Assembly (NCBI GenBank): GCA_964016885.1 | Contig: OZ024740.1 | Location: 105,896,001 to 105,960,000, forward strand | Source of the DNA: Eledone cirrhosa | Lineage: Eukaryota | DNA: 64,000 bases | Reading direction: 5' to 3' | In this document: in pieces, positions 5,401 through 58,034 of the stretch | Layout: each line of letters starts with the position of its first letter | Numbering within the stretch: position 1 is the stretch's first letter | The notes under the pieces: generated by a model | What the model was told of the DNA's origin: nothing | Seen by the model: only the letters and a program-made list of their open reading frames with translations | The model's database searches: none | Translations under genes and position numbers: made by a program

Positions 5401-5404
5401 ATAG

Positions 5405-6334: not shown

Positions 6335-6381
<47 letters not shown>
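6335..6381 (+). repeat. (AAT)n microsatellite; tail/target of Tx1-A copy 1
   Basis: Direct read. Confidence 0.97.
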
Positions 6382-6383
<2 letters not shown>

Positions 6384-9300
6384 TTTCTTTATTAACCACA
6401 AGGGTTTATATAAAGTAGACATTAAGGACAGTGCAGGACAATGCAGGACGGTACAAATGGGCATTTCTGCGTGTAAAAAACAAAAACAGAGGATGTAACA
6501 AAAAATAACAATGAAAAATTCCCCAATAGGGTGCAGACTTCGGAGGGACATTTGTGGAGAAAGCCCAGTAAAAAGCCACAATGACCCTGACCACCAAGGC
6601 AAGTGCCCTCTCCCAGTTTTCCACCTTTAATTTACAGATATATACTCAGAGTAGGCCCATTCACTCGGGCCATTCTTGCTTCTCTCACCCATCTTTCAAC
6701 AAAATGCTGGGAAGAGAGCACTTCCCTCTCTACTCTGATTTTCCTTTTCAAATGAAATTTGAAAAAGTCAATCAGAGCATCACCGAAGAGGTAAGTGCTC
6801 GTCTTCAGCCCTTTCAAACGTGTCCACCATACTATCTCTTTCACCATGGCCACCAGGCAGATAAAAACTGCCTGCCCATCCCGGCTAAAGGAGGAGGGCG
6901 GGGCAATCCTCACGATGGACTCAGATGATAGCCAGATCCGTCCTAAACGCGACAGCAGGTGTTCGACATAAACCCACAAGGCAGCAATTTTCGGACACTG
7001 GACGAGTGCGTGCAGGACGGTTTCGTCGCCCTGCGCGCATCTCGGACATGCCCGGCTGACGGCACCTCCATGCCTGTAGAGTTTATCCCGAACTGGCAAG
7101 GCTCCTCGGTAGCACTGCCAGGCCAGAGATTTCTGGAAGTTGTCCATAGGCCCTGGCCCGAAAGTTCTTCCGAAGAGATTGGCTAGTTGATTTTCGTCGA
7201 CGCCTAGAGTTTCCCCAAGTACGTCGTCGCTCTTCCCCTCCACTAATCCTCTATAGATCGCCGATGTGGAGTTTCCACCGATCACATTGCCCGATTGGTC
7301 GAGGGCTGTGAGCGCCTGAAGACATTCCAGTCTCCAGGCGCTCCCTCTCGGTCTTCGCTTGACCCAGGTCTGCAGCTCCGTCAAGGAAACGAGCTGGGGA
7401 AAAACGCGTCTAGCAAACGACGACTACACCTGATCACCGTCGAGGAAGAGGTGGAGATGTCGTAGCCTGAGCGCGTGCCTGCGCATCATCAGCCACGGCA
7501 TGCCCAGCCCTCCACGTAGCGGGTGTTGACAACAGATGGACCGCCTGACCATCGGAGCACGTCCCTTCCACAAAAAGCGAAAGAGCAAACGCTCCAGCGC
7601 AGTCAGGCGAGGCTTAGGACAAGGTACGACGGTTAGGCGGTAGCAGATGACAGACGCGATGTACGCGTTAGCCACCTCCGCTCGACCTTTCAGGGATAGC
7701 TTCCTCTCCGCCCATTTCTGGGTGAGAGAAGCCACCCTGCTCGTCACCTCGTCCCAGTTTTTGTCCGTCTGGAGGTCCGGACCGAACCAGACCCCTAGCA
7801 ATTTAACCGGTCCGTCCGTCCAGCGCCCGACGACGCTGTTGGACGGCATGGACCTGCCTCTCCAGGTGCCGAGCTGCAGGCCCACCGACTTTTCCTGGTT
7901 GATCATTGCTCCTGTCACCGCTTCGTATTCTCTTAGTGTAGTGCCGATCGCCTCGATGTGTTTGGCGTTCGACACCACTACGGTGACATCGTCCGCATAT
8001 GCTGACACGGATCTTCCGCATCCTAGTTCGCGCGGGATGCCCCTCAACGTCTCCAGTTTGTGCAGTAATGGCTCGAGAGTCAATACGTACAAGAAGGACG
8101 AGAGGGGACATCCTTGGCGGACCGAGCGCATGATGTTGAACGGTTCCGACAGGTGACCGTTCACTCTCACCACAGAGCAGATGTCGCTGTGCATGGCAGC
8201 GATCCAGCCTCTGAAGACGGGCCCAAAGCCAGCCGCCGTCAGGACAGCCGCTAGGTAACGATGGTCGACCCTATCGAAAGCTTTCGACTGATCTAAATTG
8301 ATCAAGGATCCACCCGTGCCAGGTTCCCTAGCTACCCTCTCTACGATGTATCGCATGAGGTGGAGGTTGTCGTGGATGGATCTGTCGGGAATGGCGCATG
8401 TCTGCGCCTCTCCCACCAGACCACCAACGACAAGCGCCAACCTCTTTGCTAGCACCTTGGCCAAAATCTTGAACTCTGTGTTTAGCAGATATATGGGCCG
8501 GAAATTATCTATGTTATCCCCCTTGTTCGGATCCTTTCTCAGCAGTGCCACCGCTCCTCGGCTCACAGAACTGGGAATTCTCCCGTTCTGTTGCCAGTTG
8601 CAGTAGACGTCCGCCAAGAGGCCTCTGAACAAGTCTGGCATCTGTACGTAAAGTTCATAGGGCAGACCATCCAAACCAGGCGATTTACCCCTTGTGCAGC
8701 CAGTCATTGCCTCCCTTACTTCAGCGGCTGTTATTGGCTTTTCGCAACACTTCGCCTCAGTGGCCGAGAGCTGCGGCAGTCCGTCGAGGTAGACACTAAA
8801 GTCCATCCCTCGACCTGGCCGACCGCTGCCCTCGAACAGCTGAGCGAAGTGTTGCTGAAAAGCTTCACACATTTGCCCGGGATCAAGTAGCATGCGCCCG
8901 TCGTGGTCCACCAAAGACCAGATCGTGGCTTTGTTGAACGGGCCCATTGAACGGCTTTCGTCCCCTCGTGTCAGAGAGCACGCACCCTTGCTCTGACAAC
9001 GCAGCCTTCGTGCTTTGCATTGAAGAATTGGTCAAGGGCCAATTTCGCCGCAAGCATGTCGGTCGCAATGCCTTTGCTAAGCGCCTCGTCTAATTTTCTA
9101 ACTAGTTCTCCCTCTGCTCTATTTTCCTCTATTGCTAAACCTAATGGATTCTATTCTAATCGCTCTTTTCAGAGCAAACCACCACTTGTTGTTGACGATG
9201 GCCCCCGTCAACGCCCGCTTAACTAGTTCGCTAATCCGGTCTCTGTAGGCCTTGCGCGCTGGTAAGGACGCGTTTAGCTTCCAGTAGCCGGGTCCTCGTC

Positions 9301-12300
9301 TATGAAGCCTATCTAAGTCAAACACACAGATCACGAATTTGTGGTCCGTGTAGCTGACTATCTTGAATTGTAGACAGCCTATGCTAGATCTATCTATTTC
9401 CCTACAAAATACTCTATCTAGATATGATCTGGATGACCCGATGCGATTTGTCCAAGTCCACATTGGCACATTCGGGAAATCCAATCTGTACCTGTCAGAC
9501 AGTTCAAAACGCCTGAGCAGGTTGGTGAGGCTCTTGCACCCTCCATCCCTATCCGCTATTTCCCACACAGTCCCAGCGTGCATTTAAGATCCCGTTCCAG
9601 TCGCCCACTAACACTAAAGAGCGGGACGTTCCAAGAAAGGTCTCCAGACGCCGGAAGAAATCAGGCCGCCCTGCTCCTGTCGGGGCATAGACGGCCACTA
9701 ACCTGAAAGCTTGCCCGTCTCCGCTGGTCACGTCCAGCACCACCAACTTACCCACTGGGTCCAGGAAGATGGCCCGTATGGCGAGATCCAAACCTCTCCG
9801 AAAAAGCACAGCAACTCCTCCCCCCGATCCAGGACGGCTGGGAGATGCGTACACATTGTAGCCGCCGAAGATCGGTGCGAAGGCCCGTGCTTCGGAGATT
9901 CTGGTCTCGCTGATGGCCACTACATCTATGTTTAGTGACCTGAGGTCGTTGAGCAGGTGACCCTGCTCCCATGACGACCCCCAAGCCACGCGCATTTATG
10001 CTGCCTATTCTGAGTGAGGTCATGTTTAAAATAGAGTGGAAAAGATGGGAAAGACCACTGCCGTACTTTTCGTATAGGAGGGATGGTTTTTACATCCCTT
10101 TTCACTTGATCGTCTGGTGAAGAGACCGTTGAATCGCCCCTTCGGCTGGTCATCTGCTCTTCTATGAGTATGTCCGAATATACTCTTCGGTTGATAGTTC
10201 CTCCTAGGTCTCTGAAATCACCAACTGCGTTGGGGAATTTCGTTTTGATGTTTGTGTATTGTTTCTGTGCTATTTTTAGCAGTCTTATGTTAGTTGGCGT
10301 TTTGATTGGTGCTGGTATTATGTAGTCGTGTTGTGAAATGTATGTGTGTTCAATTATGTAAGTCATTAGTTTCTTGTTGTGTGTATTTATTGCCGTGCAT
10401 TTGTTTTTCTGGGGGTGGGGTGTGGTTCTGCTATTTTCTTGTCGTTTTTGCTGGGTGTGTGTGTTTTGTTGTTGTGTTTGCGATGTTGGTGCTTGTGGTA
10501 GTGGTGTTGAAGGTGTTGTTGGCGGTGGGGTTGTCGCCGGTGGTGATGGTGGTGCTAGTGTGGGTGGTGATGGTGTTGGTGGTGTTGCTGCTGTGAGTCT
10601 CTTTGCAGTAGACTTTACCCTTTTTTCATTTCTTTCCTCCCTTTTCAAAGGCGACGATGCGCTGCTTCTGCGTTTGTGCCTTCTTACGACCTTTTGCAAT
10701 CCCTCTCCCACCTCACACTCCATGTCTGATTCTGTGAGATCGGGGAGGGGTACCAGCTCCACTCTTTCACTTGTTGTTGTTGGTGATGTTTGCACTGGAG
10801 TCTTTGTTGCAGCTGCATTTGGTATTGCTGTTGTTGTTGTTAATACTTCCACTGCTGCTGCTGTTTTTGATTTCCGTGGAGTGCTTATGGGTGCCACGGA
10901 CCTATCGTTCCTGGTTGCCGCTTGTCCTGTTGCTGGTAGCCGTGGAGCCGGTTTCGGAAAGAGGGGGGTTTTCTCCTTTCTCAGGGTCTTCTCGTTGCAG
11001 AAGGCCCTGAGGTGATTCTTCGATCCACAGCGAAAGCATTTCGGGCGTTTGCCCTCAACACTTATGGGCAGTTGAGTGCCGTTGTCGAAGTCTATCACAT
11101 CCGGGATAGCTTCGATGCACTCCTGGTTGGTTTGGATTAACATCTCAATGGAGGTGCCGACCCACTCTTCTCTTACTTTTTTCTGTACTTGCAGTACAGT
11201 TGTTTTGTCCTCGATTCCGACGAGGACAGACGCGGCCAGCCAAGAAGGGGCCATTCCGGGGGGGGGGGGACGTGGGTCAGTTTGACCCTCACAATTTTTT
11301 GCCCGCAGTAGGAGGGCACCAACACCATTTCCTCGCTCCTTTGGGTCACTACGGATTGAGCTTTTGCCTCCTGGGGTGTGGCAAAAAGTACGTCTACGGT
11401 GGCATATTTCTTGCCTCGGGTGATGTGCGTTTTCCGCTGCCACACAGACCCCAAGGCTTTTTGTATTTGAGCCTCTGTGGCTCTTTCCACCCTACGGGAT
11501 TTTGTACTTACTGTACGGTACGTGACCGTACAGTGCTGTTGGGTTTCGAAAAGTTTTTCCGCTGCCTTGCAGATTGCTCGATGTCCAGTTTTTGTCACCA
11601 TCTTCTTCGCTTCCTCTAATTCCTCATTTGTTATGAGGATTGTTTCCAGATTGGTTTTCTTTGCTGCTGTTGTTGTTGTTATTGTCGTCGTCAGAGCTGC
11701 TGTTACTTTTGTTGTTGCTACTGGTACTACGACTACTGCAGCCGCCGCTGTTGCTGTGGTTGTTGTTGTTGTTGCTGCTGCTAATGCTATTGTTGTTTAT
11801 GCTGCTGCTGATGCTGTTGCGGCTGCTACTGTTGTTTTCATTGTCACTGTTGCTGTTGTTATTACGGCTGCTACTGCTATTATTCCTGACGTCAGACGAA
11901 TGAAATGGGTTTTCGTATTTCCCGCACACGTGTTTCGTCGTTGCCGTCGTCGTCGTGGAGAAATCTTGCACGCTTTGCACGAGACTTTTCTTTTCTGTCG
12001 TCGCTTGCGAAAGAGAAGGGAGGGAGAGAGACACATTTAAAGAAGGGAGGGAGAGAGACAATCTTCTCTCTGCTGTAGTGACGATTGAGGAAGAAGAAGA
12101 CGGAATGAGTGGGAGTGACCTATGAAAATTCTTTTTCGTAGCCATGTTGTTTTTTTTTTGTTTAAAATAAATATTGGGCACAAAACCCCAATAAGCAGTT
12201 ATTTAACCCCGAAGGGCCAAATAACGGGCAGAAAGACCCCTCTCACGAGAAGGAGGGTGTTTTTGTCTACAAGTTGATTAAAGTTTTAAACAATTTACAA

Positions 12301-12363
12301 TTGTTATAGCGTTCAAAATTTACAATACCTTACAGAGCCGAGCCTCCGTCAACCATAGCATTC
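6382..12363 (-). mobile_element. Full-length Tx1/L1-clade LINE (family A, copy 1), frameshifted
   Basis: ORF1 pieces 11173-11601 and 9932-11443 with CFRCGSKNHLRAFC knuckle; APE from 10023 (SINARGL, SET, GDWN, YLDR, TDH); RT 7424-8947 (YADD); C-terminal CPRC..ETVLH..C; (AAT)n on both flanks. Confidence 0.93.
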
Positions 12364-24415: not shown

Positions 24416-24420
24416 GGATT

Positions 24421-24522
24421 GGTGACGGTGGATTGGCAGTATCGGTAGAGAGTCGGACACCATGTTTTGAAGCATAGAGTTACGTCCCTTTATGAACTGT
24501 GTTCAAATTCCGCCGAGGTTAT
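24421..24522 (+). mobile_element. tRNA-derived SINE, 5' fragment
   Basis: Matches the head of 57088-57280; B-box-like gttcaaattcc. Confidence 0.75.
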
Positions 24523-24745
24523 ATACTTGCCTAACTAGTCATGTTCTCTCAGGTTCTGTGAAACCCAGCTTCTCAAGATTGGTACTGAGACAGTTACTAA
24601 CACATACCAGTGCCCCAATAATTACAGCTATAAATCTGAAGGTAGAGTCAGGGTGGAGTATCTGTAGATTCTTCATTTGTTATGCATAGATGTTCTCCTA
24701 TTCGCTAATCTTTAATATTATATTAGCATCTACTGGGCAGCTGAC

Positions 24746-24746
<1 letters not shown>

Positions 24747-24776
<30 letters not shown>

Positions 24777-24846
24777 TGTATGTATGTATGTATGTATGTA
24801 TGTATGTATGTATGTATGTATGTATGTATGTATGTATGTATGTATG
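24747..24846 (+). repeat. (TATG)n microsatellite
   Basis: Direct read. Confidence 0.97.
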
Positions 24847-25095
24847 CGATCGCGAGGGGACTCAGTCCGCTGCTGTTTTAAGGCGCCGTCGTCGTCGGCG
24901 ATCGCGTCGGCGGCGGTCTCTCGTTTCGACGAGTCGACCGCCGACCGCCTCGCCGGCGTTACGATTCGCGGGGTGCCGGCATCGGACGCACTTCCCCTTC
25001 GATCCGTCGTCGCGACCCGTTCCCGTCAGGCTGGATGGCGCGCGGTGTCCGCAGGTCGCAGAGCGGCGTCCCGCCTAGAAAACGAACCGTTCCAT
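24847..25095. other. GC/CpG-rich structured insert of unknown origin (rDNA-spacer-like?)
   Basis: Sharp compositional contrast with the flanks; internal hairpin ggcggtc..ctcg tttcga cgag..gaccgcc. Confidence 0.4.
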
Positions 25096-25099
25096 ATGT

Positions 25100-25706
25100 C
25101 AGGTCACCAGTTGGTGCTACTGGTAACATGTATCCCAGTACAACCTGTCTCATGGTCGGGTCGTTGGCGACTAAACTGGCAACCCTACCAAGGTTTCTTG
25201 GTGAGGAGGGTGACTTTGGACATCCTGCAGGACTAAAAACAAAACCTGTCAAAGGGCAAGGGAGCTCTTAAGACTCAATAGCCATCCAAAATCACCGGGA
25301 GAGATGACCCCTTAGCCTTTGTCAAGGCAGAATTCTAGGAGAAGGAAAACTCTGATATAACACCTGCAACCCTGATGGTATCCAATGATGTTGACTTGTT
25401 CTTCTTTTTGGTAAATATCATCTTGGTTAAGAGAGTGGGACTGGCTTTGTGCAGTGCCTTTGCTCACTATAAAAGCTTCACAGCACAGGCATTGCTTTAT
25501 ATCTGGAGATCTCTCTGCACTTGTCATCACATGGTACCATGGGCCCTGCACTATGTGTCAATAATGGTCACAAGTGTAGTCTTTGTACCAGAGTTTTCAA
25601 GTCGCTGGCTGGACTAAAAAGTCACATTCGTTCAGCGCATCGGTAGGGGTTCTCCTACATGGATATAAAGTAGTGGCCGTACTCGAAAACGAGTTGGCAG
25701 CCACCA
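25100..25706 (+). mobile_element. Non-autonomous bipartite RTE-derived element, copy 1, (TATG)n tail
   Basis: 5'UTR-like part fused to an ORF end encoding HKCSLCTRVFKSLAGLKSHIRSAHR* (C2H2), then the hairpin ctcgaaaacgag; repeated at 26446. Confidence 0.72.
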
Positions 25707-25793
25707 TGTATGTATGTATGTATGTATGTATGTATGTATGTATGTATGTATGTATGTATGTATGTATGTATGTATGTATGTATGTATGTATGT

Positions 25794-26389
25794 CAGGTCA
25801 CTCTTGAGTGCTACTGGTAACATGTAACCCAGTACAACCTGTCGCATGGTCGGTGACTAAACCGACAACCCACCAAGTTTACTTCGTGAGGAGGGTGATT
25901 TTGGACACCCTGCAGGACAAAAAAAAAACCTGACAAAGGGCGGAAGAACTCATAAGGGTCAACGGTCATCCAAAAGTGTGTAAATATGTATATACACATG
26001 TATATGTGTATACACATGGGTGTATGTGTATATATATATGCTATGGGACTTAGAAATTGACAGACTGGACACCCGATCGCGCGGTTAAACCACTGGGAGT
26101 GAAGCACCCCTAACTTTTATCAGGGCATACTTCTAGGAGAAGGCAACTCAGGAAACTGGGATAACTCCGATATAAAACCTGCGGCTCGATAGTTACCGAT
26201 GATGTTGATCTATTCTTCTTTTCGGGGTATAGCTACTGTCGCTCAGAGAGTGGGATTGGCTCAGTGCACAGTCTTTCCTCACTTTAAAAAAGTCACGCAC
26301 AGGCATTGCACGATAGAATTAATTAATAATTATTAATAATGTTATATCGTGCAATGGCCCTACTCGATAACAAGGGGGCAGCCATCATC
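25794..26389 (+). mobile_element. Related, diverged non-autonomous RTE-derived element
   Basis: Shares 5' motif (caggtcac..tactggtaacatg) and 3' motif (ggcc.tactcga..ggcagcca) with the flanking copies; flanked by TATG. Confidence 0.65.
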
Positions 26390-26396
26390 ATGTATG

Positions 26397-26430
<34 letters not shown>

Positions 26431-26445
26431 TGTATGTATGTATGT

Positions 26446-27051
26446 CAGGTCACCAGTTGGTGCTACTGGTAACATGTATTCCAGTACAACCTGTCCCATG
26501 GTCGGGTCGTTGGCGACTAAACTGGCAACCCCACCAAGGTTTCTTGGTGAGGAGCGTGACTTTGGACATCCTGCAGGACTAAAAACAAAACCTCTCAGAT
26601 GGCAAAGGAGCTCTTAAGAGTCAATGGCCATCCAAAATCACCGGAAGAGATGACCCCTTAGCCTTTGTCAAGGCAGAATTCTAGGAGAAGGAAAACTCTG
26701 ATATAACACCTGCAACCCTGATGGTATCCAATGATGTTGACTTGTTCTTCTTTTTGGTAAATATCATCTTGGTTAAGAGAGTGTGACTGGCTTTGTGCAG
26801 TGCCTTTGCTCACTATAAAAGCTTCACGCCACAGGCATTGCTTTATATCTGGAGATCTCTCTGCACTTGTCGTCACATGGTACCATGGGCCCAGCACTAT
26901 GTGTCAATAATTGTCACAAGTGTAGTGTTTGTACCAGAGTTTTCAAGTCGCTGGCTGGACTAAAAAGTCACACTCATTCAGCGCATCGGTAGGGGTTCTC
27001 CTACATGGTTATAAAGTAGTGGCCGTACTCGAAAACGAGTTGGCAGCCACC
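26446..27051 (+). mobile_element. Non-autonomous bipartite RTE-derived element, copy 2
   Basis: Highly similar to 25100-25706; (TATG)n on both sides. Confidence 0.75.
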
Positions 27052-27074
27052 ATGTATGTATGTATGCATGTATG

Positions 27075-28319
27075 TTTCTCGTTCTCTTAATTTCGAGTAC
27101 TTTTTGACCGGCCACCTGCCTGGTGGCAAGGTTGTAAAAGAAGAGAAATTGTCATCACTTGAATCACATGAATGTTTTGCAAATGTTGAATGTACCAGCT
27201 TTCTCAGCCATTTGTAATCTATGAATTAGGGAGCTACGTTTATTGTCCACAAATCCAAGTTCAGTCATATTTTGGTCCAAGCGGCTTGGTATATAACCTG
27301 TAACTCCAATAAGGATGGGTGTGAAGCTGAAAGTGTATCTTGCAAATTCCTCATCAATTGTCGTAGATGTCCTCCTTCTCATGTATTTTTCTTACGAAGT
27401 TGACATCAAGTGAGCAGCTGATCTCTGCAACAGAGCACATTTTCAATGTGTGGTCCCAAACAACAATATCAGGCCGGTTGTGCTTTAATTTGATAGCAGT
27501 TTTTATTTGTAGGTTCCACCAGTATTCCTATCTCAACATATTCCTCCTCATTTGTTTTTTTAATTTTGTTTTCCTAAGTGCGTTCCAGATGGTTCTAGCT
27601 ATCACATCATGTCTCATAAGGAGGTAGTAGTGAGACGGTATTCTTTCGCAGTTGACAATAATGTGGCTAACATCTTCGATCTTTGTTTTACATAGCCTAC
27701 ATTTATTGTCGACTGATGGTCCTCCTCTTTTGTGTAAAAGATATTTGGTAGGGATTTCTTGTTCCTGCATTGTATAGAGATATTCTTTAAGGTGGGATAT
27801 CATAAACTTGTCGGAACTCCATACCAGGCTTTTTGAATGATTTATCCACTCTGTATTTTGAATGATTTATCCACTGTGATTTATCCACTCTGTGTTTTTC
27901 GTCTCAGGGTCCCATGCACAACTTTCTCTGCAAATTGGTCCATTTTTTCTATTCTTGTTTGGACATTGAATAGGATCTTCCAATGTTCGTGGGTGAGAGA
28001 TTTTATATCAGGCAGTATTCCATATCTCTCCTGCAGATCAGTGGCTATCCTAATGATATTATTTCCTTCATGCTCATAAACTTGGTCAAGATGGTTGCTG
28101 ACCTTTCTCGTCTGTTGAAGATGTTGCTTTAGTGTTATTATCCGGGTCTCGTACGATGTTAATATGGATTTTAGACAACAGCCACCTTCCTTGCGTGAGA
28201 AGTATAGTCTATCCACATCACCATTGATGTTAAAGTTTCTAGTAACACTGAGAAGCTTGCGAGTTCTTACATCCATCTCATTTAGTTCTTGCAATGGCCA
28301 TTTCAGCGGGTCAAATTTT
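27075..28319 (-). mobile_element. RLE-type (R4/Dong-like) LINE family D, 5'-truncated, (CATA)n tail
   Basis: DVRTRKLL..DVDRLY..RKEGG; QEQ; CRLCK..EDVSHIIVNC; RHD; RPDIVVWD on the minus strand; flanked by TATG tracts 27052-27074 and 28320-28430. Confidence 0.82.
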
Positions 28320-28534
28320 GTATGTATGTATGTATGTATGTATGTATGTATGTATGTATGTATGTATGTATGTATGTATGTTTGTATGTATGTCTGTATG
28401 TATGCATGTATGTATGTATGTCTGTATGTATTTATCTTTCTTTTTATCTATAACTCTTTTCTAAACCCACTGCTTCTTCCAATGGTCAGTGTACTACTCT
28501 GATTTGGAATCTTCCCGGTCTTGATAGCACATGC

Positions 28535-29518: not shown

Positions 29519-30203
29519 TAAGGATGGTTGATTGTCAAAATCTTTATAGGAATGGACAAAATTCCTTGCGGTATTATTTTTGTTCTTACATTCTGAGTTC
29601 AAATCCTGTCAGAGTCAACATTGTCGTTCACCCCTTCGGGGACGATAAATAGAGAACCATTTGAATACCGAGAGCGTTTATTATCACTTTCTTTTCTCCC
29701 TGAAAGAAATTATATGTGGTCAGACATGGACTGTTTCAGTCAGCTTTAATATATCTTATGCATGTCGTACGTAAGGGCGAAGCCACTATGTCTCCTTCAT
29801 GAGTTGGTTGAGGTCACAAACAAAAAAGGAAAGAAGGAAGGAAAGTTTATATCATTGGACGAAATATTTTTAAATATTTATTTTTTTTGTACGTACTGAG
29901 TTCAAGTACCACTAGAGTCGACTTTAAATTTTATTATTCCAGGGTCGATAAAGTTAATTACCAGACTAATGCTGGGTCGAGGTTCTCGATTACACCCTTT
30001 TCAAAAATGTATCAGTTGTATCGCAGTATCGGTAGAGGGTCAGATGTCATGCTTTGCAGCAAAGAGTGACGGCCCTTTATGGTCTGAGTTCAAATCCCGC
30101 CGAGGTTAACTTTGCCTTCCATCCTTACGGGGTCGATAAAATAAAGTACCAGTAATACACTGGAATAATTGCTGGCCTTGTGCCAAAAGTAGAAACAATT
30201 ATT
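29519..30203 (+). mobile_element. Cluster of SINE copies (degenerate at ~29519-29670 and ~29895-29970; better preserved at ~30020-30203)
   Basis: ctgagttcaaatcc..ttgccttccatccttacggggtcgataaaataaagtaccag..ggccttgtgccaaaagtagaaacaatt. Confidence 0.75.
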
Positions 30204-31168: not shown

Positions 31169-31718
31169 TGGGAAGAAAGCAAAAATAATAGATATTAACA
31201 TTGATATAAGAGAGGAAAGCAAGAAGCACATGAAAAGCATGATGATATAGACATAATTAGGAATCAGCAGCTAGGGTCATTAAATAAACTTAAAAACAAG
31301 CTGGTATAAAGAAGAAAAAAAAGCTGCTAAAAAAAAGCTGCTTTAAGCATAATGCAGGGATATTATATACTGACAAATTTACATACAACAAAAGCATTGT
31401 AACAGTCTATAAAAGCTAGTGCATGGATAAAATATAAACTTAAATTTAAGAATGTAAAAATACATCTTCAAGTTTATATTTGATCCATGCACTAGCTTTT
31501 ATAGACTGTTGTAATGCTTTTGTTGTATGTAAATATGTCAGTATATGATATGCCTGCATTATGCTTAAATTTCCTTTCTTTATATCAGCTTATTTAAATT
31601 TTTTTTTAATGCCCCTAACTGCTGATTCCTAATTATATCTATATGATCATGCTTTTCATGTTCTTCTTGCTTTCCTCTCTTATATCAATGTTAATATCCA
31701 TTATTTGCTTTCTTCCCA
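31169..31718. repeat. Long imperfect inverted repeat (arms of ~250-275 bp), probably an inverted PLE pseudo-LTR
   Basis: 31169-31443 is the reverse complement of ~31469-31718; a hammerhead motif follows. Confidence 0.85.
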
Positions 31719-33317: not shown

Positions 33318-34369
33318 AACGTATACATACATACATATATATGCATATACATATATATCAAATTGAAAAAACAAACAGAGTTAAAAACCCACGTTAGTCA
33401 CCTGTAATTTAATGAGCTCGAGGATAGACACCGTGATCTTTATAATACTTGCATATATGTATATATATGCGTGTATATATATATATATATATACACACAC
33501 ATGTGTGTGTGTAAGAGAGAGAGTATGTATGTACAATACAGTCGAGTGTCTGTCTTCAGAGAAGACACTATTTGAGCAATTCAGTAATATTTCTATTATA
33601 AATTCTTTTACTTACATATCATTAGATTAAGTTGAAATATTATTTTCTCGTTATCCTTGTATATCTTATGTAATAAAAGCGTACTATTTCGTTTAGGTTT
33701 CCTAGTTTGATTTAGCAGTGCTTATGTAGGTATATATTTATGTATGTATGTATGCGTGTATGTATGCGTGTATGTATATTTTAAAGACAAGATAGCTACC
33801 GCCCAGGGCGTTCAATAACTGAGTAAGCTATTGGGTAAACGGAAGAAGGAGGGAAGAAAAGAGAAAACAGTGAAAAAAAAACACAACAAACCGAGCAATA
33901 TGTGAGCAACTATAAGTAGGAAATCCAAGACCACTCGATAAGAAAACTTAAGTTAAAGGCTGAGTGGTCGAGAGGAAAGAGACACACGTCCGATCACCGC
34001 AGTTGTAAGTGAGAAGGGAACTGCTAAACGGTCAGGCGAGGGGGTGAAAGTGAGAGGGAGAAAGGGAGAGGAAGAAAGTGGGGTAAGAGTAGATAGGGAG
34101 AAAGATAGGAGAAGAGAGAGGGAGGAGAATAGAAAGTAGCGAAATAGGTAGGTAGAAGGGGAGAGATGAATGGTCACAGCGAAAACAAATATATGTGTAG
34201 TTGCTATTTAAGGTAACTTAAATTGCAGTGGGAATATATATACAATATATACAATTATATATACATACCTAATCACACACACGCATATATATATATATAA
34301 TTGTCAATAGCATATACACCTCTCTTTCTCTCTCTCTCGTTCACTCTCGATATATATATATATCTCGTC

Positions 34370-34730
34370 TATATATGCGATGTACTCTCAGGCCCCGATG
34401 AAAAAAGAAACTCGTACATCGGGATGACTTCTAATAGTTTTAAGACTCGCTGGTACCCCCACATACATTCGTTCCGGCGCCCAGACAAATCTAACCAAAC
34501 TACACTCGCCGCCCACATCTGGCACCTTAAAAGGAACTCCATCCTCTTCAAGACCCAATGGAGACTAGTCCAGAGAGCGCGATCCTACACGGGAGGCCAT
34601 AATTGCTGTGACCTCTGTATCTCCGAGAGCTATGAGATTCTATTCGCCAAAGGCCCTCTCCTCAACAAGATCTCGGAACACTCCCCTAATTGCATGCACA
34701 AGAACTATGCAAATTACAAAAAACTACAGA
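34370..34730 (+). pseudogene. PLE-type GIY-YIG endonuclease domain; no RT seen
   Basis: LVY.C....YIGMTSNSFKTRWYPH..SF...TTLAAHIWHLK...W...CDLCISE...LN...CMH. Confidence 0.8.
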
Positions 34731-35017
34731 CCCCCCCGGCCCCCCCGACTGCCCCCCCTATCACCACCCCACCCCCGTCCCCCATCCCAATTCCGTCCCT
34801 CCATCTCTCATTATTACCCTCTCTCCTCCCCCTCTATCTCTCATTATTACCTTCTTTCCTCCCCTCCAGGTCTTATATATTGTGTTGTATGCCTCTGAGT
34901 AAAGTTCCGTGGCCGCACACACAAATTCACGTATATACCTGCTCATGTTTGCATACGTGCAGTTATGGACTGCTGCACGCACACGTTCGTGATTTATTTA
35001 TCTATTTATCTGTATAT

Positions 35018-35052
<35 letters not shown>

Positions 35053-35316
35053 CTTATTTACTGGTTTATTTGTTTATCTGTTTGTTTGTTTGTTTGTTAG
35101 TTAACTCATTCATTTATTTATTAATTTATGAGTGAATGATTAGGTAATGAATAGATAAAAGATAAAAGATAGGTAACGAATAGTGAATGGTAAATAGTAA
35201 ATAATAAATAGTAATTAATTACGTGATGATAATATTAATAACTTAGTAGTGATATTAATTATTTTAATCCTCTATCAGGCCCAGTTTAAAATCCACTACC
35301 ATTATATTATAGACAC

Positions 35317-35499
35317 GGTGGTGGATTAGCAATATCGGTAGAGTGTCGGACGCCATGCTTTCCAGCATAGTTACGTCCTTTACGATCTGAGATCAAATCC
35401 CGCCGAGGTTGACTTTGCCTTTCATCCTTACGGGGTCGATAAAATAAAGTACCAGTAATGCACTGGGTATTTGCTGGCCTTGTGCCTAAAGTAGAAACA
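35317..35499 (+). mobile_element. Full-length tRNA-derived SINE (Meta-domain-like core) with 16-bp TSD
   Basis: TSD attatattatagacac at 35301-35316 and 35500-35515. Confidence 0.88.
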
Positions 35500-36001: not shown

Positions 36002-36006
<5 letters not shown>

Positions 36007-36194
36007 AACCAGTAAGACCCCGACAGCTGAGCTCAAGCCGTTTCGACGGCTAATTCTGGACAGAATTAGCCGTCGAAACGGCTTGAGCTCAGCTGTCGGG
36101 GTCTTACTGGTTCCTATTACCCACTCTACTACCTCAAGTATTGAGTACTTTGGTGCGTTATGGTCCACCTGGTTCCTTACCACATTTCCTTCGT

Positions 36195-36225
<31 letters not shown>

Positions 36226-36238
36226 ATGTGTAGGTATG

Positions 36239-36289
<51 letters not shown>

Positions 36290-36352
36290 CGAAGGAAATG
36301 TGGTAAGGAACCAGGTGGACCATAACGCACCAAAGTACTCAATACTTGAGGT
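36002..36352. mobile_element. Palindromic PLE pseudo-LTR-like remnant in (TA)n
   Basis: Near-perfect hairpin 36002-36117, tail to 36196, inverted tail copy 36288-36352; a relative lies at 57643-57812. Confidence 0.7.
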
Positions 36353-36984
36353 ATATATATATATGTGTGTGTAAGTGTTTTTGTATGTGGTTGTGAGTAT
36401 GTAAATATATTTTATTCTTTCCATTCTACAAAAACACTCTGGCCACCTGTGGCTTGTATGTTAACTTGACCACTCACCTCAGTCTGTGCCATGATTCAGT
36501 CTTGTTTAATGTTTAATTTCTATTACCAACCCACCTAAAAAATATATATAACTGTTGAATTACTATTCTTGGGTTTTTTATTTACTTATTTATTTATTTT
36601 TTTATTTATTTTATTTATTTATTTATTCATTAATCTATTTATTCATTTATTTATTTATTTACTTATTTATTTATTTCAAAAAAGCACTCTGGCTAATTGA
36701 CCACTCCCCAAAGAAAAAACGGCCTGTGCCATGTTGTGGTCCTGTGTATCTAAATACCATCCTACCCCCCCCCCCCCCTCCCCCAGCCACCACCCCTCCC
36801 TTACCACTACCTAAATGTATAAATACCAGAACTTAATATGACACCCAGCTTTCTGAAGATTTCATCTGAATGAAACAGTACTAGTCCTGTAGAAGCTCCT
36901 TCTATAAAATAAACAAATTTTACTCTGCCATGTATTGAGTACCTTACTTACTGTGGTTATCCCCGACTCAACCCGGGACCTACG

Positions 36985-39516: not shown

Positions 39517-39547
39517 CTTAACTATCTGCATATATATATATATAACT

Positions 39548-39616
<69 letters not shown>

Positions 39617-39620
<4 letters not shown>

Positions 39621-42618
39621 CTTAACTATCTGTAACACTAACTTCAAAAAACGAGACAATCACTTGATCACCTATAGATCGGGAGAACACACAAGCCAGG
39701 TAGATTATATCCTTACCAGAAGACGTGACAGAGTGTCTGTTGTTAACACTAAATCCCTCCCCCATGAAGAATTCACCTCCCAACATAGACTGATAATTAG
39801 CGACCTCATAGTCAGGACAAGACGTACTAGACAGCGGAAGAGGACTATCCTCAGGAGAAAAATATGGAAGCTAAAGGACCCCATAGCCAGAAATAAATTT
39901 CAAAGCATATTACTTGACGCTTTCGACAGTAAGGAAGAGCAATTAGAGTCGTATAATATAGAGGAACAGTGGGAATTCCTGAGAGCAAACCTGCTGACGG
40001 CGGCAGACGATGTCTGTGGCTGGAGCAGGCCTGTAGGTAGGAGGAGAGTAACATGGTGGTGGAACAGTAAGGTGGAGGAGTCAATTAAGGCCAAAAAGCA
40101 GGCTTGGAAAGCATGGCGGGATGGGGGAAGTAGAGAAGACTATCAAGTGGCCAGGAGGGAAGCTAGGAGACAAGTGTACTTCGCAAGAAGGGAAGCAGAG
40201 GAAAGAAAGTTCAAGCATGTTCTACAACGTGAGGACCAAAAACGTGAGGCGTTCAGGATTGCCAGGCAATGTGTCAAGGAAAACCGTGATATTGTCGGGG
40301 AGAAGTATGTACTTAACGATGATGGCATACTTGCCATCACCGACGCTGATAAGAAGGTAGCTTGGAAGTGTCACTACGAAAGGCTTCTAAATGAGGAGAA
40401 CAAATGGGAGAAAGACAGTCTCCCCCACATCGACCCAATAGAGGGACCAGCAGTGTTAGTCCAGGGTAGTACAATAAGCAAGGCAATCAAAGATATGAAG
40501 ACGGGTAAGGCGGCTGGTCCTTCGGAAATAGTTGCTGAGATGCTGAAGGCATCTGGTTCGGTGGGACACACCATGGTCACCCGGATAGTTAACCAAGTCG
40601 TACAGAATGGGGTTGTTCCGAAGGACTGGCGTAGCAGCATCATCGTTAACTGCTATAAGGGAAAAGGAGATGCCCTAGATAGGAGTAACTATAGAGGCAT
40701 TAAATTAATCGACCAGGTCATGAAGGTCACGGAAAAAGTAATAGCGCAACTAATCAGAGAGAGAATTGATCTAGATGAAATGCAGTTCGGATTTGTGTCA
40801 GGCAAAAGTACCACAGACGCTCTTTTCATTGTACGACAACTACAGGAGAAGTACCTAGCTAAAAGTAAACCCCTATACTTAGCTTTCGTCGACTTGGAGA
40901 AAGCCTTCGACAGAGTCCCCTGTTCCATTATCTGGTGGTCTCTTAGAAAACTAGGTGTTGACGAATGGCTTGTGAGAGCTATACAAGCCATGTATAAAGA
41001 AACAGTCAGTAAGGTTAGAATTAACAACGAATATAGTGAAGAGTTTAGCGTAAAAGTTGGTGTCCATCAGGGCTCTGTTCTTAGCCCCCTACTATTTATT
41101 ATTGCCCTTCAGGCTATAACAGAGGAGTTCAAGACCGGCTGCCCATGGGAACTCCTATACGCAGATGATCTAACGCTCATAGCTGAATCAATGACCGAAC
41201 TAGAGAAGAAATTCCAAACATGGAAGCACGGCCTAGAATCAAAAGGCCTTAAAATTAACCTGGTTAAGACTAAAGTTCTAGTTTGTAGGAAAGAAAATAA
41301 GGCGGCAGTCCCATCTGGGAAATGGCCATGCTCAGTGTGTAGGAAAGGCGTAGGTAGAAACTCCATTTTATGTCCCAAATGCAAAGTATGGGTGCATAAA
41401 AGATGTAGTGGGATCACAGGTAAGCTAACTAAGAACATAGATTTTACATGTGGCCGGTGCTCTGGTGCAATAAGTAGCAGCAAGTGCCCACAAATACTAG
41501 CTCCCTCAACTGCGCAGAGGGTTCTATAGAAATAGTGGACAGCTTCCGTTACCTGGGTGACAAAATCAGCAGTGGGGGAGGGTGCTCTGAAAGTACAGTA
41601 GCTAGAGTCAGAACTGGATGGAAAAAGTTCAGAGAGCTTATACCACTATTAGCCGCTAGAGGGTTCTCCCTAAAAATGAAAGGCAGGTTATACGATGCCT
41701 GCATACGAACAGCAATGCTGCATGGCAGTGAGACCTGGGCATTGTGTGCAGAGGATATACGCAGACTAGAGAGGAACGAAGCTTGCATGCTCCGCTGGAT
41801 GTGCAATAGTAATATACGTGAACGGCAAAGCATAAACGAACTAAGGAAAAAATTAGAAATAAGAGGGATCAGATGTTGTTTACTCGAGAGAAGGCTACGT
41901 TGGTACGGTCACGTGATGCGCATGAAAGACGACAGCTGTATAACAAAGTGCAGGGCAATAAAGATAGACGGTAGCCACGGAGTAGGCAGACCCAGAAAAA
42001 CATGGAACGAGCTGATAAATTCCGACCTCACACGCTTACACCTCTCCAAGACAATGTCACTGGACCGAGACCTTTGGCGGTACTCAGTAATAGAGAAGAC
42101 CCGCCTTACCTAAATACAAAGTAAAAACCTACTACAGTCAGTAGGCATCTCTATCACCCCCCCCCCCCCCGTCCCACCACCTCCACCCCATCCACACCGC
42201 CCCTTTCAATGTAAAGTTATGTTGGTCCCACAACATCCAGGCCGAAACAAATGAGATCGTGTAGGTGTCACGACAAAAAAACACACAGTCCACGCTGTAA
42301 ATGTGGCCGTGTAGGCAACACGGTAAAAACCTCCCAGCCCCACACTGTAAATGTGGTTGGTGTTAGGAAGGGCATCCAGCTGTAGAAAACCCGCCAGACA
42401 GTCCACGCTGTAATGTGGCCGTGTAGGCAACACGGTAAAAACCTCCCAGCCCCACACTGTAAATGTGGTTGATGTTAGGAAGGGCATCCAACTGTAGAAA
42501 ACCCGCCAGACAGTCCTATGCGAGCAAGACAACCACTCTTGCCTCAAGTGGGAAAACCCCCGTCCAAACCCATGCAAGCGTGGAACACGGACGCTAAACC
42601 TGATGATGATGATGATGA
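39617..42618 (+). mobile_element. RTE-clade LINE, 5'-truncated within APE, one frameshift, (GAT)n tail
   Basis: ORF 39664-41529 (SQVDYIL, SQHR, NYRGI, DLEKAFD, GVHQGS, YADD) plus 41484-42113 (YLG, LRWYGH, GRPRKTW); ~113-bp tandem duplication in the 3'UTR at 42285-42516. Confidence 0.92.
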
Positions 42619-43399
42619 TATATAATTCACAAGAATCAAAGCTATGTTCAAAGCATTCATTCACTTACAATTGTTTCATCCAAACTTAGGCTTGGTGTCT
42701 TCGGAGCAGTTTTCAATGTTTGTACACATAATTGACCTCCTTTCCAACGCAAGAGACATACAGATACATATATATATATTGATGTACAGTGGAGTGACAT
42801 ATATTATACTATATTATTTCTGTATAGCAATTCAAATTCAAAAGCAAAATAAAAATAAAAATAAAAATAAAAACAAAATTAAAACAAAATTAAAATACAT
42901 TCGGCAGTTAACACAGATAATGCAAGATGATAGTTTGTTAGTCAGATGTAGTAGTTAGTGTATGCGTTAGTTACACGTGGGGCATGCAAGTGTGTCTCAT
43001 TTATATATGATTATTGTGTGGCAGGGTGTTACATGTAATACAAACACTTTAAGCGGGTAAGTAAGAGTATTATGGTGGTTGTAGTGGTAAGGTATTTTTT
43101 GTATATAATAAAAAAGTATGTGTGCAGAAAAATAAAAATAAAAAGGAGAAGCAAGAAGCAAAAGAAAGTTATGGTTTTCGTATCCACCACCATTTTCACA
43201 TCAGGAAAATAATACATTGTTTTTACATCCATCACATAAGTAACGATGATTCCATATTGGATGTTTGATGCATTAAATTAAATTATTTTAGCTTATTGCG
43301 GCTCAGTGTTATTTAATCCAAATTAATATAATAGGTTGATTCTGCTGCGAGAATTTACAGCGGTTTATTATCCGGAAGTATGTGTTTAGTTAAGGGGAT

Positions 43400-46300
43400 T
43401 TAATGCGTGGCAAACGGTCTGCCACAAAAAACAAATAACAAAAAAACCCTTAGATTCACCCTCCAAAAGCGAAGGCATACAAAGAGGGGTAAAGGCAGCA
43501 AGGAAACTTGCAGCAACACCACCACCATCACCACCACAAGCACCACTGACAACAACAACGACACCACCACTAGCATCACCAAAAACACCAACAACGCAAA
43601 CACAACAAGACACACACACCAAACAGCAACAAGAAGAAAACAGCAACAAAATCACCCCTCCCCCCCAAAAGTACACAGCCATAAACATGGCAAAAAAAGA
43701 ACTCATACAATATATAATGCAGCACACAGACATCACAGAAAAAAACTACTATACCCCACCAACACCAAGAATTCTCCCGACAAACATAAGCATCATCGAA
43801 ATCTCAATAGAACAGTACAAACCTTTAAAACAAAAATTCACCAACGCAGTTGGAGACTTCACAGGGTCGGTTACCAAGAGGATATACACTGACATCCTCT
43901 TGGAAACACCCATGACCAGCGAAAGGGATGGTTCTACTGTTCCTTCACCACACCAACAAGGTAAGTGACTCTTTCTCACTTGCCCCGTTTCTCATCCAAC
44001 ATGGCCGTACTCAGAATAGGTAGTATAAATGCACGTGGCCTGGGGTCATCTTGGAAGCAGGGTCACCTGCTCAACGACCTCAGGTCACTAAACATAGATG
44101 TGGTGGCCATCAGTGAAACCAGAATCTCCGAAGCACAAGCCTTTGCACCGATCTTCGGCGGCTACGATGTATACGCTTCTCCCAGCCGTCCAGGATCGGG
44201 GGGAGGGGTCAACGTTCTTTTTCGGAGAGGCTTGATCTCGCCATCTTCCTAGACCCAGAAGGTAAGTCGGTGGGGATGGACGTGACCTGCAGCGAAGGCA
44301 ATGCTTTCAGGCTAGTAGCCGTCTACGCCCCAACGGGGGCAGGACGGCCAGATTTCTTCAGACGTCTAGAGACCTTTCTTGGAACGTCCCGCTCTTTAGT
44401 GTTAGTGGGCGACTGGAACGGTATATTGGATGCACGCTGGGATCGTGTGTGGCTAGTGGATAGGGGAGGAGGGTGCAAGAGCCTCACCAACCTGCTCAGA
44501 GGTTTTGAATTGTCTGACAGGCATCGACTGGATCACCCGAATGTGCCAATGTGGACATGGACAAACCGCATCGGGTCATCCAGATCGTATCTCGATAGGG
44601 TATTCTGCAGAGAACTAGATAAGGCTAGTATAAGTTGTCCACAATTTAAAATAGTCGACTACACAGACCACAAATTTGTGATCTGTGAGATCGACATAGA
44701 CAGACTTCATAGACAAGGGCCCGGTTACTGGAAGCTGAACGCGTCTTTTCCAGCGCGCAAAGGCTACAGAGACCGTATTAGCGTATTAGTTAAGCGGGCA
44801 TTGACGGGAGCGATCGTCAACAACAGGTGGTGATTCGCCCTGAAAAGGGCAATTAAAGTAGAGTCGATTAGGTTTAGCAAAGGAGTAGTGATAGAGGAAA
44901 ATAGAGTAGAGGGAGAGCTAGTCAGAAAGCTAGTAGAGGCGTTTAGGACAGGCATCGCAACTGACGTACTTGCGGCGAGATTGGCACTCGACCAATTCTT
45001 CAACGCAAAACACGAAGGCTGCGTTGTCAGAGCTACAGTGCGTGCTCTGAAATACGAGGGGACAAAAGCCGTCCAATGGGCCCGGGTGGCAGAGGCGCGA
45101 TGTGGCAACAAATCCACAATTCGGTCTTTGTCTGACCAAAACGGGTGCGTGATGCTCGAACCCGAGCGGATGTGTGAAGCTTTTCAGCAGCACTTTGCTG
45201 AACTGTTCGGGAGCGGCGGTGGCCCGGATAGGGGCATGGACTTCAGTGCATACCTCGACGGACTGCCTCGGCTCTCGACGACCGCAGCACAGTGTTGCGA
45301 AAAGCCAATAACAGCCGGTGAAATACGGGAAGCGATGGCTAACTGCAAAAGGGGGAAATCGCCAGGTTTGGATGGTCTGCTCTACGAGCTTTATGCATTT
45401 ATGCCAGACTTTTTCAGTGACATCTTGGCAGACGTCTACTGCAACTGGCAGCAGAACGGGAGCATTCCCTGTTTTGTGAGTCGGGGAGCAGTGGCGCTGC
45501 TGAGAAAAGACCCGAACAAGGGGGATGTTATCGATAATTTCAGGTCCATAACCCTGCTAAACGCGGAGTTCAAGATTTTGGCAAAGATGTTAGCAACGAG
45601 GTTGGCGCTTGTCGTCAAGGGTCTGGTGGGAGAGGCGCAGACATGCGCCATTCCGGACAGATCCATACACGACAACCTCCACCTCATGCAATACATCATA
45701 GAGAGGGTGGTTAAGGAACCCGGCAAGGGTGGGGCCCTGATCAACTTGGATCAATCCAAAGCATTCGATAGGGTCGACCATCGGTATCTGGCGGCGGTCC
45801 TCGAGGCAGCCGGTTTCGGGCCCGTTTTCAGGCGTTGGATCGCAGCAATGTACAGCGACATTGGCTCAGTTGTGAGAGTGAACGGTCACCTGTCACAGCC
45901 GTTCAGCATCATGCGCTCAGTCCGCCAGGGTTGTTCCCCCTCGTCCCTCTTGTACGTATTGGCTCTCGAGCCGTTACTGCACAAACTGGGGGCGATGAGG
46001 GGCGTCCCACGCGAACTAGGATGCGGGAAATCCGAGTCGGCTTACGCTAACGACGTCACCGTGGTGGTGTCGAGCACCAGACACGTCCAGATGCTCGGCA
46101 CCGTTCTGAAGGAATACGAAGCGGTGACAGGAGCAAAGATAAACCAGGAAAAGTCGGTGGGCTTGCAGCTAGGCACCTGGAGAGGCAAGTTCATGTCGTC
46201 CGACAGCGTCGTGGGGATTTGGACGGACGGACCGGTTAAATTGTTCGGGGTCTGGTTCGGACCGGACCTCCAGATGGAGAAAAACTGGAACGTGGTGACG

Positions 46301-47698
46301 AGCAGAGTGGCCTCCCTCACCCAGAAATGGGCTGAGAGGAAGCTGTCCCTGAAAGGCCGGGCGGAAGTGGCGAATGCGTACATCGCATCCGTCATCTGAT
46401 ACCGCCTCACCGTCGTCCCTTGCTCCAACCCAACTCGCACCAAAATGGAGCGCCTCCTCTTCCGCTTTTTGTGGAAGGGACGCGCTCCCATGGTCAGACG
46501 ATCCATCTGCTGTCAACACCCGTTGCGTGGAGGACTGGGCATGCCATGGCTGATGATACGCAAACATGCGCTGAGGCTGCGACATCTCTGGTGCTTCCTT
46601 GATGGCGAACGGGTGTGGTCGCCGTTCGCCAGGCACATTGCCACAGCTCGTCTCCTTGACGGAGCTGCAGTCCTGGGTCAGAAAAAGACCGAGGGATAGC
46701 GCTTGGAAACTGGAATGTCTCCAGGCGCTCACTGCCCTCTCCCCGTTGGGCACCAGTATCGGTGGAACATCCACCTCGGCGTTCTATAGAGGACTAGTGG
46801 AGGGGAAGAGCGACGACATTCTAGGAAAGTCCTGGGCGTCGAAGAAGATCAGCTGTTTGCTCTCTTCTGAGAACTTTCAGCCCGGGGTCTATGGATAACT
46901 TCCAAAAATCCCTGGCCTGGCAGTGCTACCGGGGAGCGCTGCCGGTTCGAGATAAGCTCTACAGGCACGGAAGTGTCGTCAGCCGAGTCTGTCCGAGATG
47001 CGCGCATAGCGACGAAACCGCTGTGCACGCACTCGTTCAGTGCCCGAGCATTGCTGACTTGTAGAGCTATGTCGAACAGTTGCTGTCGCGTGTGGGACTG
47101 ATTCGGTTGTCGACTGAGTCCATTGTGCAGATGGTCTCGCCGTCTTCCTTCGAGGAGGAAGGGCAGGTGGTTTTCATCTGCCTGGTGGCCATGGCGAAAG
47201 AGATTGTGTGGTGGACAAGGTTAAAAGGATTAAAGATAAACACTTTCCTCTTCGGCGAATCCCTAATTAACTTTTTCAAGTTTCACTTGAAGAGGAAAAT
47301 CAGGGTGGAGAGGCAAGTGTTGCTTTCTAGCAAGTTTGTTGAAAGGTGGGTGAATGTAGCGAGAATGGCCCGAGTGAACGGGCCCACTCTGAATATACGT
47401 CTGTAGTTTGAGAGATGGAATCATTGAGAGAGGGCGCTTGCCCTGGTAGTCAGGGTGGCCGTGGTCTTTTGTGTGGTTTTCGCCACGAGTAACCCTCGGA
47501 GGTTTCCCTCCTATAGGGGAATTTTTCATTGTTTCAATTTTCATTTTATTGTTTATATATATATACGTTTTGTGTTTTTTTTTTTCTTTTCTTATATAAA
47601 TAATAAAAAATATTTACACGCACAAAACCCACATCGTACCGTCCTGTTCCGTCTGTGATGTTTTTTCTTGATGTCAGCCCTTGTGAACAATAAAGAAA

Positions 47699-47700
<2 letters not shown>
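43400..47700 (+). mobile_element. Tx1/L1-clade LINE family B, 5'-truncated within ORF1
   Basis: ORF1 end 43687-43968; APE 44000-44833; RT 44888-46399; C-terminus to 47406; (ATT)n tail. Confidence 0.93.
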
Positions 47701-56500: not shown

Positions 56501-56850
56501 TAAGTCAGTAATGTTTATTTTGTTTGTGATGATAATGTTTTTGAGAATTATGTTAGTCTTGTGTATTATCTTTTGGTTCTGTTTGGAGTTCTGGATCTTA
56601 GGGAGGGTGTCTCGTTCCCCCATGTCAGATTCTTTCATTTTCATCCATTCGATCATAATTTCATCCTTCAAGTTGGCAAGTTCATTCTCATTCATTTCTT
56701 TATCATTTACGATCTCATTATTTTCATTTGGAGTTTCATCCTGAGCATGCACTCCCTCCACTTTTTCGCTCCTTTCTTTAATTTGTTCTGTTGCCAGTGA
56801 TTCCGCCCCAACTCTGGGATAATATATAACCAGCAATTTCTCTGTCTGTC
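53529..56850 (-). mobile_element. R4/Dong-type LINE family C, long young copy
   Basis: 3'UTR matches the copies at 18203 and 21708; (AAT)n tail at 53514-53528. Confidence 0.92.
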
Positions 56851-57812: not shown

Positions 57813-57866
<54 letters not shown>

Positions 57867-58034
57867 AATTAATATCTAGTAACATATATATACATACAGA
57901 TGCATATCAATGCTAGCAAATATATAGGTTTTGTCTTAGTTACTTTGTGATTCAATGCATGGGGTTGCAGAACAATAATATGAGAGACGTAAAATAAGAA
58001 AATTATAAAATTAACTTACTTACTAAAATATCAC

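Follow-up and report, generated by a model that had tools for sequence, protein, structure and literature searches.

Opposed retroelement insertions in a TATG/CATA microsatellite of Eledone cirrhosa: a probable (CATA)n target variant of Dong-like elements

Introduction

Long interspersed elements (LINEs) of the R4/Dong clade insert into ribosomal DNA or microsatellites, lack an N-terminal zinc finger and carry a divergent Myb/SANT-like domain (PMC7998251), and a 5′ hepatitis delta virus (HDV)-like ribozyme has been described as a feature of the clade (PMC3774820). For Dong itself, the target reported from most insects, molluscs and cnidarians is (TAA)n (PMC7998251, PMC3812793). Among RTE elements, 3′ microsatellites correlate with the choice of insertion site (PMC6007223), a link between RTE and microsatellites also appears in PMC2887409, and bipartite non-autonomous RTEs combine a 5′ part with a 3′ part (Kojima 2018, PMC5786205). 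Here we analyze 64,000 nucleotides of the cephalopod Eledone cirrhosa (assembly GCA_964016885.1, contig OZ024740.1, forward-strand positions 105,896,001 to 105,960,000; hereafter the window), where RTE-derived elements and fragments of a LINE with a restriction-like endonuclease (RLE) meet in opposite orientations within one TATG/CATA microsatellite.

The published microsatellite targets that we found are TAA for Dong, AC, TC, TTC and TG for other elements, and an unspecified repeat for HERO (PMC3812793, PMC4640811, PMC7998251). As far as the accessible text goes, neither a TATG/CATA target nor a single repeat used by both an RLE family and a family with an apurinic/apyrimidinic-type endonuclease (APE) is among them (PMC3812793, PMC4640811). 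A literature search likewise returned no TATG/CATA-specific RLE element, an absence that is weakly shown because the search did not extend to Repbase or to papers behind a subscription, such as Kojima and Fujiwara (2004). In O. vulgaris, Dong-R4, RTE and L1-Tx1 families were recently active, according to its annotation (PMC13282606); the word "target" is absent from the main text of that paper, and a motif search of supplement files 1-4 of PMC9115989 gave no match.

Five Elements in One Microsatellite

Five elements adjoin TATG/CATA tracts at this locus: three non-autonomous copies on the plus strand (E1, E2, and E3) and two fragments of one RLE lineage on the minus strand (D and D′). We judge it rather probable that they are five target-primed insertions piled into one (TATG/CATA)n, with the D lineage and E in fixed, opposite polarity. 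Outside the array, TATG/CATA runs of at least three units amount to 80 bp, or 0.13% of the window, so the clustering in this repeat is not due to chance. When junction polarity is written on the sense strand of each element, the three D-lineage junctions (D 5′, D 3′, and D′ 5′) all show (CATA)n and none lies in TAA, while the E 3′ ends show (ATGT)n in 3/3 cases. Other families in the window have their own repeats: the 3′ ends of the RLE families B and C abut (TAA)n in 5/5 cases, and those of family A, a Tx1/L1-like element, abut (ATT)n in 5/5. No D-lineage sequence was detected by tblastn in the TAA tracts of the window, and the (TAA)n target of Dong sensu stricto was found at neither D nor D′. 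That few copies suffice to read repeat specificity here follows from a control: in an unrelated record, five of the seven 3′ junctions of a B-like family carry TAA runs. The D lineage thus likely targets CATA repeats instead of the TAA usual for Dong, and is a probable (CATA)n target variant of Dong-like elements.

The features of the locus, from left to right, are:

24416..24521, plus strand: 5′ half of a dispersed short interspersed element (SINE), joined to D′ via a short microhomology (junction comparison; self-BLAST matches at 57091-57186, 35320-35410, and 30023-30108)
24522..24745, minus strand: D′, the other RLE fragment of the D lineage, spanning 74 C-terminal RLE codons, two stops among them; 5′ end adjoins (CATA)n, 3′ end lost
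24747..24846, plus strand: (TATG)25 tract, 100% in Tandem Repeats Finder
24847..25092, plus strand: 246-bp piece of 69% GC joined to the E1 5′ end, absent from E2 and E3 (1/3 E copies)
25095..25705, plus strand: E1, TATG plus a 607-bp body (25099-25705), bipartite, non-autonomous and RTE-derived
25473-25643, within E1 near its 3′ end: C2H2-like peptide remnant (Pfam E 2.6e-5, below the cut-off)
25706..25792, plus strand: (ATGT)22 tract, the tail of E1 and target of E2
25793..26389, plus strand: E2, of a separate though related non-autonomous family; it contains an internal insert of 114 bp and differs in its 3′ part
26390..26444, plus strand: (ATGT)14 tract
26445..27051, plus strand: E3, of the E1 family
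27052..27075, no strand assigned: six-unit, 24-bp tract common to E3 and D at their tail-to-tail junction
27076..28319, minus strand: D, 5′-truncated RLE-type LINE with thumb, CCHC, RH, RPD..E and K..Y motifs and a short 3′ untranslated region (UTR)
28320..28430, plus strand: (TATG)n tract at the D 5′ flank, pure in its proximal and degenerate in its distal part

A preliminary description, made from the letters alone, had placed three head-to-tail elements with repeat tails on the plus strand, and the tract and element positions agree with it, the tails reading (ATGT)n; the RLE-type LINE fragment on the minus strand, tail-to-tail with E3, is likewise borne out. Two further statements need amendment. 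The array was said to be bounded by TATG tracts, and the left tract is not its outer boundary, D′ lying directly beyond it (24522-24745). D was credited with its own (CATA)n tail, and while the minus-strand fragment stands, a tail belonging to D alone is not demonstrable, the 24-bp tract being common to D and E3. Of the original microsatellite, the tract at 28320..28430 is probably the oldest portion. On the left, the junction between the half SINE and D′ marks a deletion that took the D′ 3′ end and fused a TAA array to the TATG array. The half SINE sits between a family B copy and D′; a SINE (57089) likewise lies close to the 5′ side of the family B copy at 53529-56884.

The D Lineage Is a Separate Branch of the Dong/R4-Like Radiation

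The C-terminal order of motifs used for R4/Dong, CCHC followed by an RLE with RH, PD-(D/E) and K..Y (definitions from PMC4838377), is present in D as CRLC..SHIIVNC, MRHD, RPD..E and KIHEKEDIY, although the copy is decayed by frameshifts and stops. Neither D nor D′ retains a 5′ end or a reverse transcriptase (RT) domain; in D the match to P0001, the closest full-length relative (1158 aa, 54% identical in the C-terminal part), starts only at about residue 768. D′ matches P0001 at 50% over 64 aa (tblastn, E 3.6e-15), and its best 12 blastp matches among 159 proteins are all of the D lineage. The two fragments are each about 50% identical to P0001 and only 30% identical to one another in amino acids (about 65% in nucleotides, counted over 183 positions of an alignment with many gaps), a divergence too great for a local duplication.

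Both trees, which were made with FastTree, set D apart from families B and C, to which it is 28-31% identical. In the C-terminal tree (120 of the 159 proteins kept, with at least 280 aa of C-terminal coverage; 393 columns), D falls in a 16-row clade with Shimodaira-Hasegawa-like (SH) support of 100, B and C lying outside it. For the RT tree (137 rows), full-length relatives served as proxies for D: eight of them form a clade with support of 100 within the B/C radiation, and a ninth protein guessed to belong to the lineage, P0138, fell elsewhere. The lineage has a long, fully supported stem and members from other records. D belongs to a separate, well-supported branch of the Dong/R4-like radiation and, its lineage being distinct in both trees, is not a recent offshoot of B or C; membership of D and D′ in R4/Dong is likely, the placement being among relatives without names. 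The RT phylogeny of B, C, and D against Dong/R4 that had been suggested was open to D only by proxy, the copy having no RT, and it gave a branch separate from B and C.

The proxies are consistent with this placement. P0001 and P0002 contain RVT_1 and lack Exo_endo_phos, and the best fold matches of the proxies (P0001) are R2 structures. None of the 78 full-length matches shows an N-terminal zinc-finger pattern, and a Dong-type N-terminal motif of our own definition occurs in four of five D-lineage proteins. Residues 25-81 of P0001 contain three helices; Pfam returned no Myb domain in the proxies, and a single-sequence fold of the isolated N-terminal domain was of low confidence (pLDDT 55) and was not used.

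The preliminary description had further proposed that D is a Dong-like lineage that switched its target from TAA to CATA. The first half of this is strengthened, from one copy in CATA repeats to two divergent ones, with the reservation about D′ set out below; B and C can be excluded as a recent source of D, and the direction of a switch is not demonstrated. That D changed recently from TAA to CATA out of the TAA families of this genome is highly improbable: (CATA)n and (ATA)n do differ by one base per unit and the D lineage is nested in the same radiation as B and C, but D is too distant from both (see the identities above) and its lineage, which also takes in proteins of other records, has a long stem with full support, so any change of target would be ancient, its direction unsupported either way.

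The E Elements Are RTE-Derived

E1 and E3 are identical at 586/607 positions (96.5%) and E2 matches E1 at 364/462 (79%), so that the array holds two E families, E1 with E3 and E2. All three copies start at the same base, with TCAGG directly after TATG, and each ends in GGCAGCCA(Y)C followed by (ATGT)n. Their derivation from RTE, part of the preliminary description, is supported by a 15-mer of E1 and E3, GGAGAAGGAAAACTC, which has 74 occurrences in the Kojima 2018 supplement (PMC5786205); that paper places it in the RTE-derived 5′-UTR part of Ceph-SINEs. This conserved RTE 5′-UTR motif is present in E1 and E3 and interrupted in E2. None of the three copies has a long open reading frame (ORF) or a tRNA head. 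From their RTE derivation, the E elements would depend on an APE enzyme. An autonomous partner was not found among three candidates of a protein search, which is weak evidence, and the RTE of the window (39517-42620) is not that partner, having no DNA match to E. An HDV-like descriptor of our own design found nothing in E1-E3, nor in the 5′ end of family C, which was used as a check. A BLAST search of plasmids with E1 and the GC-rich piece as query gave no match.

At 25093-25225 and at the equivalent positions of E2 and E3, an interrupted stem of 13 bp joins the very 5′ end of E, the tract-derived ATG included, to a stretch that follows about 120 nt later; this long stem encloses the first 130 nt of E.

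A 28S-Like Piece at the 5′ End of E1

The GC-rich piece at 24847-25092, joined to the E1 5′ end through CATATG, folds into a long hairpin (z -2.24) and has no second copy in the window. One of its 13-mers also occurs in a wasp 28S sequence (bioRxiv 10.1101/2022.09.05.506604), and two collinear blocks, about 140-150 nt apart, match wasp 28S by eye. Rfam gave no large-subunit rRNA match for the piece and no match at gathering score anywhere in the window, and the sub-threshold matches in the region are mostly microsatellite artefacts. The piece is likely a fragment of 28S rRNA in sense orientation. We take it to belong to the D2 region. It would have been captured once via a template switch or inserted separately.

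The D′ Break Coincides With a Match to the E 5′ End

Over 27 nt and at 81%, the D′ 5′ end (24724-24750) and the E1 5′ end (25093-25119) form the longest inverted repeat in the region. Its first 21 nt agree with the start of E1 and E3 at 16 positions (16/21), and D′ breaks off precisely there, a coincidence noticed post hoc. This is the sole such site on the minus strand of the 64 kb, and one further non-E site reaches 16 in about 128,000 positions. The codons at the mismatched positions are those of D′ itself (VSCPVD), which limits any contribution of E to about 8 nt. Probably the D′ 5′ end arose when reverse transcription of D-lineage RNA switched template to an E RNA, at its 5′ end, which starts TATG-TCAG; the TATG would correspond to the one surviving between the GC-rich piece and E1. 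Under a template switch D′ would still be an insertion in CATA polarity. Alternatively, D′ cDNA may have paired with E DNA and been joined to the tract in that way, in which case D′ would be lost as independent evidence. We rejected a simple inversion across these 27-nt repeats, as it would place D coding sequence upstream of E1 and none lies there.

How the Array May Have Formed

Our preferred reading, five target-primed insertions, would run as follows. A distinct Dong/R4-like RLE lineage, represented by D and D′, would nick the TATG strand and so leave (CATA)n on its sense strand; E, mobilised by RTE, would prime from the CATA strand via an (AUGU)n tail, which agrees with the tail model for RTE (PMC6007223) and with the RTE-microsatellite link (PMC2887409). 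Pairing between tail and target may steer E insertion, and each E insertion would leave a fresh target. In the D lineage, specificity would be encoded by the enzyme, probably by the N-terminal three-helix domain together with the RLE. The nicked strand, nick positions, tail steering, target renewal and enzyme-encoded specificity are all inferences. The antiparallel geometry would then arise because two families have fixed, opposite polarity, and a class-wide rule is not needed.

Several points weigh against this reading. D-lineage copies number two, both at one locus, the 3′ junction of D′ is lost, and its 5′ break falls on the E-like match described above, so that homology to E instead of CATA may have determined it. 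The 3′ end of D and any target-site duplication are indefinable inside the repeat, 27052-27075 being indivisible between E3 and D. In the one scan of bacterial and archaeal genomes none of the four loci was of the D lineage, all four belonging to one B-like family, and none of 154 matched proteins contains a convincing CATA-derived peptide, the only matches being chance 4-mers at protein ends. The trees, moreover, are FastTree trees centered on P0001 matches and contain no named Dong or R4 reference.

These points leave room for an account that is possible but on balance unlikely, in which D is non-specific or weakly specific and landed a single time in a TATG tract, within a repeat graveyard that tolerates insertions. 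D′ would have joined secondarily because of its homeology to the E 5′ end, its cDNA pairing with DNA of E and the intervening target being lost. In favor of this, the D′ break lies on the 16/21 match, of a kind that is rare in the window; the D′ 3′ junction is missing, and old insertions are dense in the window. D would still have to meet its 0.13% target by chance, however, the upstream D coding sequence expected from a simple inversion is absent, and next to D′ stands an uninterrupted (CATA)25, its polarity that of both D junctions. The preliminary description had the RLE side represented by one copy; there are now two divergent D-lineage copies, although the independence of D′ is weakened because its break coincides with the E 5′-end match. 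If D proves non-specific, the locus would be an ordinary repeat pile-up.

A rule at the level of enzyme class is doubtful. It would hold that, on any common repeat, APE elements have the T-rich strand as sense and RLE elements the A-rich strand. Family A (5/5 on (ATT)n) opposes B/C (5/5 on (TAA)n), and E (3/3 on (ATGT)n) opposes the D lineage (3/3 on (CATA)n), the direction being alike in both repeats. The antiparallel geometry thus holds in 2/2 repeats against a coin-toss expectation of 25%, but two families of fixed polarity are antiparallel half the time; these are two independent comparisons only (coin-toss probability 0.25), and the two APE partners come from different clades. In the silkworm, TRAS and SART, both APE elements, lie in a single telomeric repeat but face opposite ways. 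RTE priming is thought to be steered by the tail and not by enzyme class (PMC6007223). The earlier statement that an APE-versus-RLE opposite-strand arrangement recurs stands as a description; as a rule it is doubtful, with only two repeat types.

A broader synthesis would make D and D′ an old, undescribed R4/Dong branch specific for (CATA)n, with RTE-mobilised elements occupying the opposite strand of its repeat. APE and RLE elements would divide microsatellites between them according to strand, and the two systems would come into physical contact, the reverse transcriptase of an RLE element being able to switch onto RTE-derived RNA at its 5′ end. This synthesis is speculative, and we would give it a low probability as a whole.

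Other Elements in the Window and in Matched Records

Family A, whose copies lie at 6335-12340, 43511-47700, and 48300-53513 and have the (ATT)n 3′ ends given above, is of the APE type and Tx1/L1-like, with two ORFs; ATT is not among the published Tx1 targets found in the accessible literature. An internal, non-terminal family A fragment at 5404-6333 adjoins the opposite polarity and is inverted relative to the neighboring copy, in a twin-priming-like or rearranged configuration. The RTE-like LINE at 39620-42620 is 5′-truncated and autonomous in type, with a PHD finger after the RT (Pfam E 4e-6), a (TA)n flank and a (TGA)n end. Fragments at 3822-5429 and 34301-35104 resemble Penelope-like RT and GIY-YIG by eye, 3825-4691 having no Pfam match, and palindromic or inverted-repeat elements resembling miniature inverted-repeat transposable elements (MITEs) lie at 31169-31718, 36002-36353, and 57860-58622.

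The four loci of the genome scan (L001-L004; CAXXBX010000133.1, 046.1, 124.1, and 197.1) come from a metagenome-assembled genome labeled Dehalococcoidia and are contigs rich in microsatellites, on which Dong-like elements stand in tandem within TAA tracts. They are the source of the B-like control family, are apparently eukaryotic, and represent probable eukaryotic contamination in a GTDB representative.

Comparison With Known Systems

A related lineage on a tetranucleotide one base per unit away from TAA would form a natural pair with Dong for the question of how RLE elements read simple repeats. The candidate readers are the N-terminal Myb-like domain, the endonuclease and pairing of the RNA tail, a choice central to the retargeting of R2-like elements. 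The two probable chimeric junctions, between the 28S-like piece and E1 and between the E 5′ end and D′, would show template switching across LINE clades.

Other LINEs also use microsatellites as safe, multicopy targets, as Waldo, Mino (AC), Kibi (TC), Koshi (TTC), Togen (TG) and some HERO elements do. The GC-rich head of E1 recalls SINE28 and other chimeras of rRNA and retroelements, in which 28S-like sequence stands 5′ of a mobilised element; here, however, the head is on one of the three E copies instead of on many identical ones, and its 28S identity was recognized by eye. A one-off chimera is likelier than a SINE28-type family, as only 1/3 E copies carries the piece. E itself is closest to the bipartite RTE elements Bov-A, RTESINE2, and WALLSI3 (PMC5786205), sharing the RTE 5′-UTR motif, a 3′ part with a microsatellite tail and the lack of an ORF and of a tRNA head, but differing in its length of about 600 bp, in the retained C2H2-like remnant and in its head-to-tail stacking within its own tail repeat. 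For the D lineage, the nearest counterpart is Dong of the R4/Dong clade (Bombyx mori Dong, DongAg, DongBg, and Darwinula Dong1/2). Both insert into microsatellites with fixed polarity, and full-length relatives of D appear to share with Dong a single ORF with RT, CCHC, and RLE, an N-terminal three-helix domain and the lack of a zinc finger. In contrast, D and D′ lie in (CATA)n on a separate branch with a long stem, which sets them apart from Dong as published descriptions have it.

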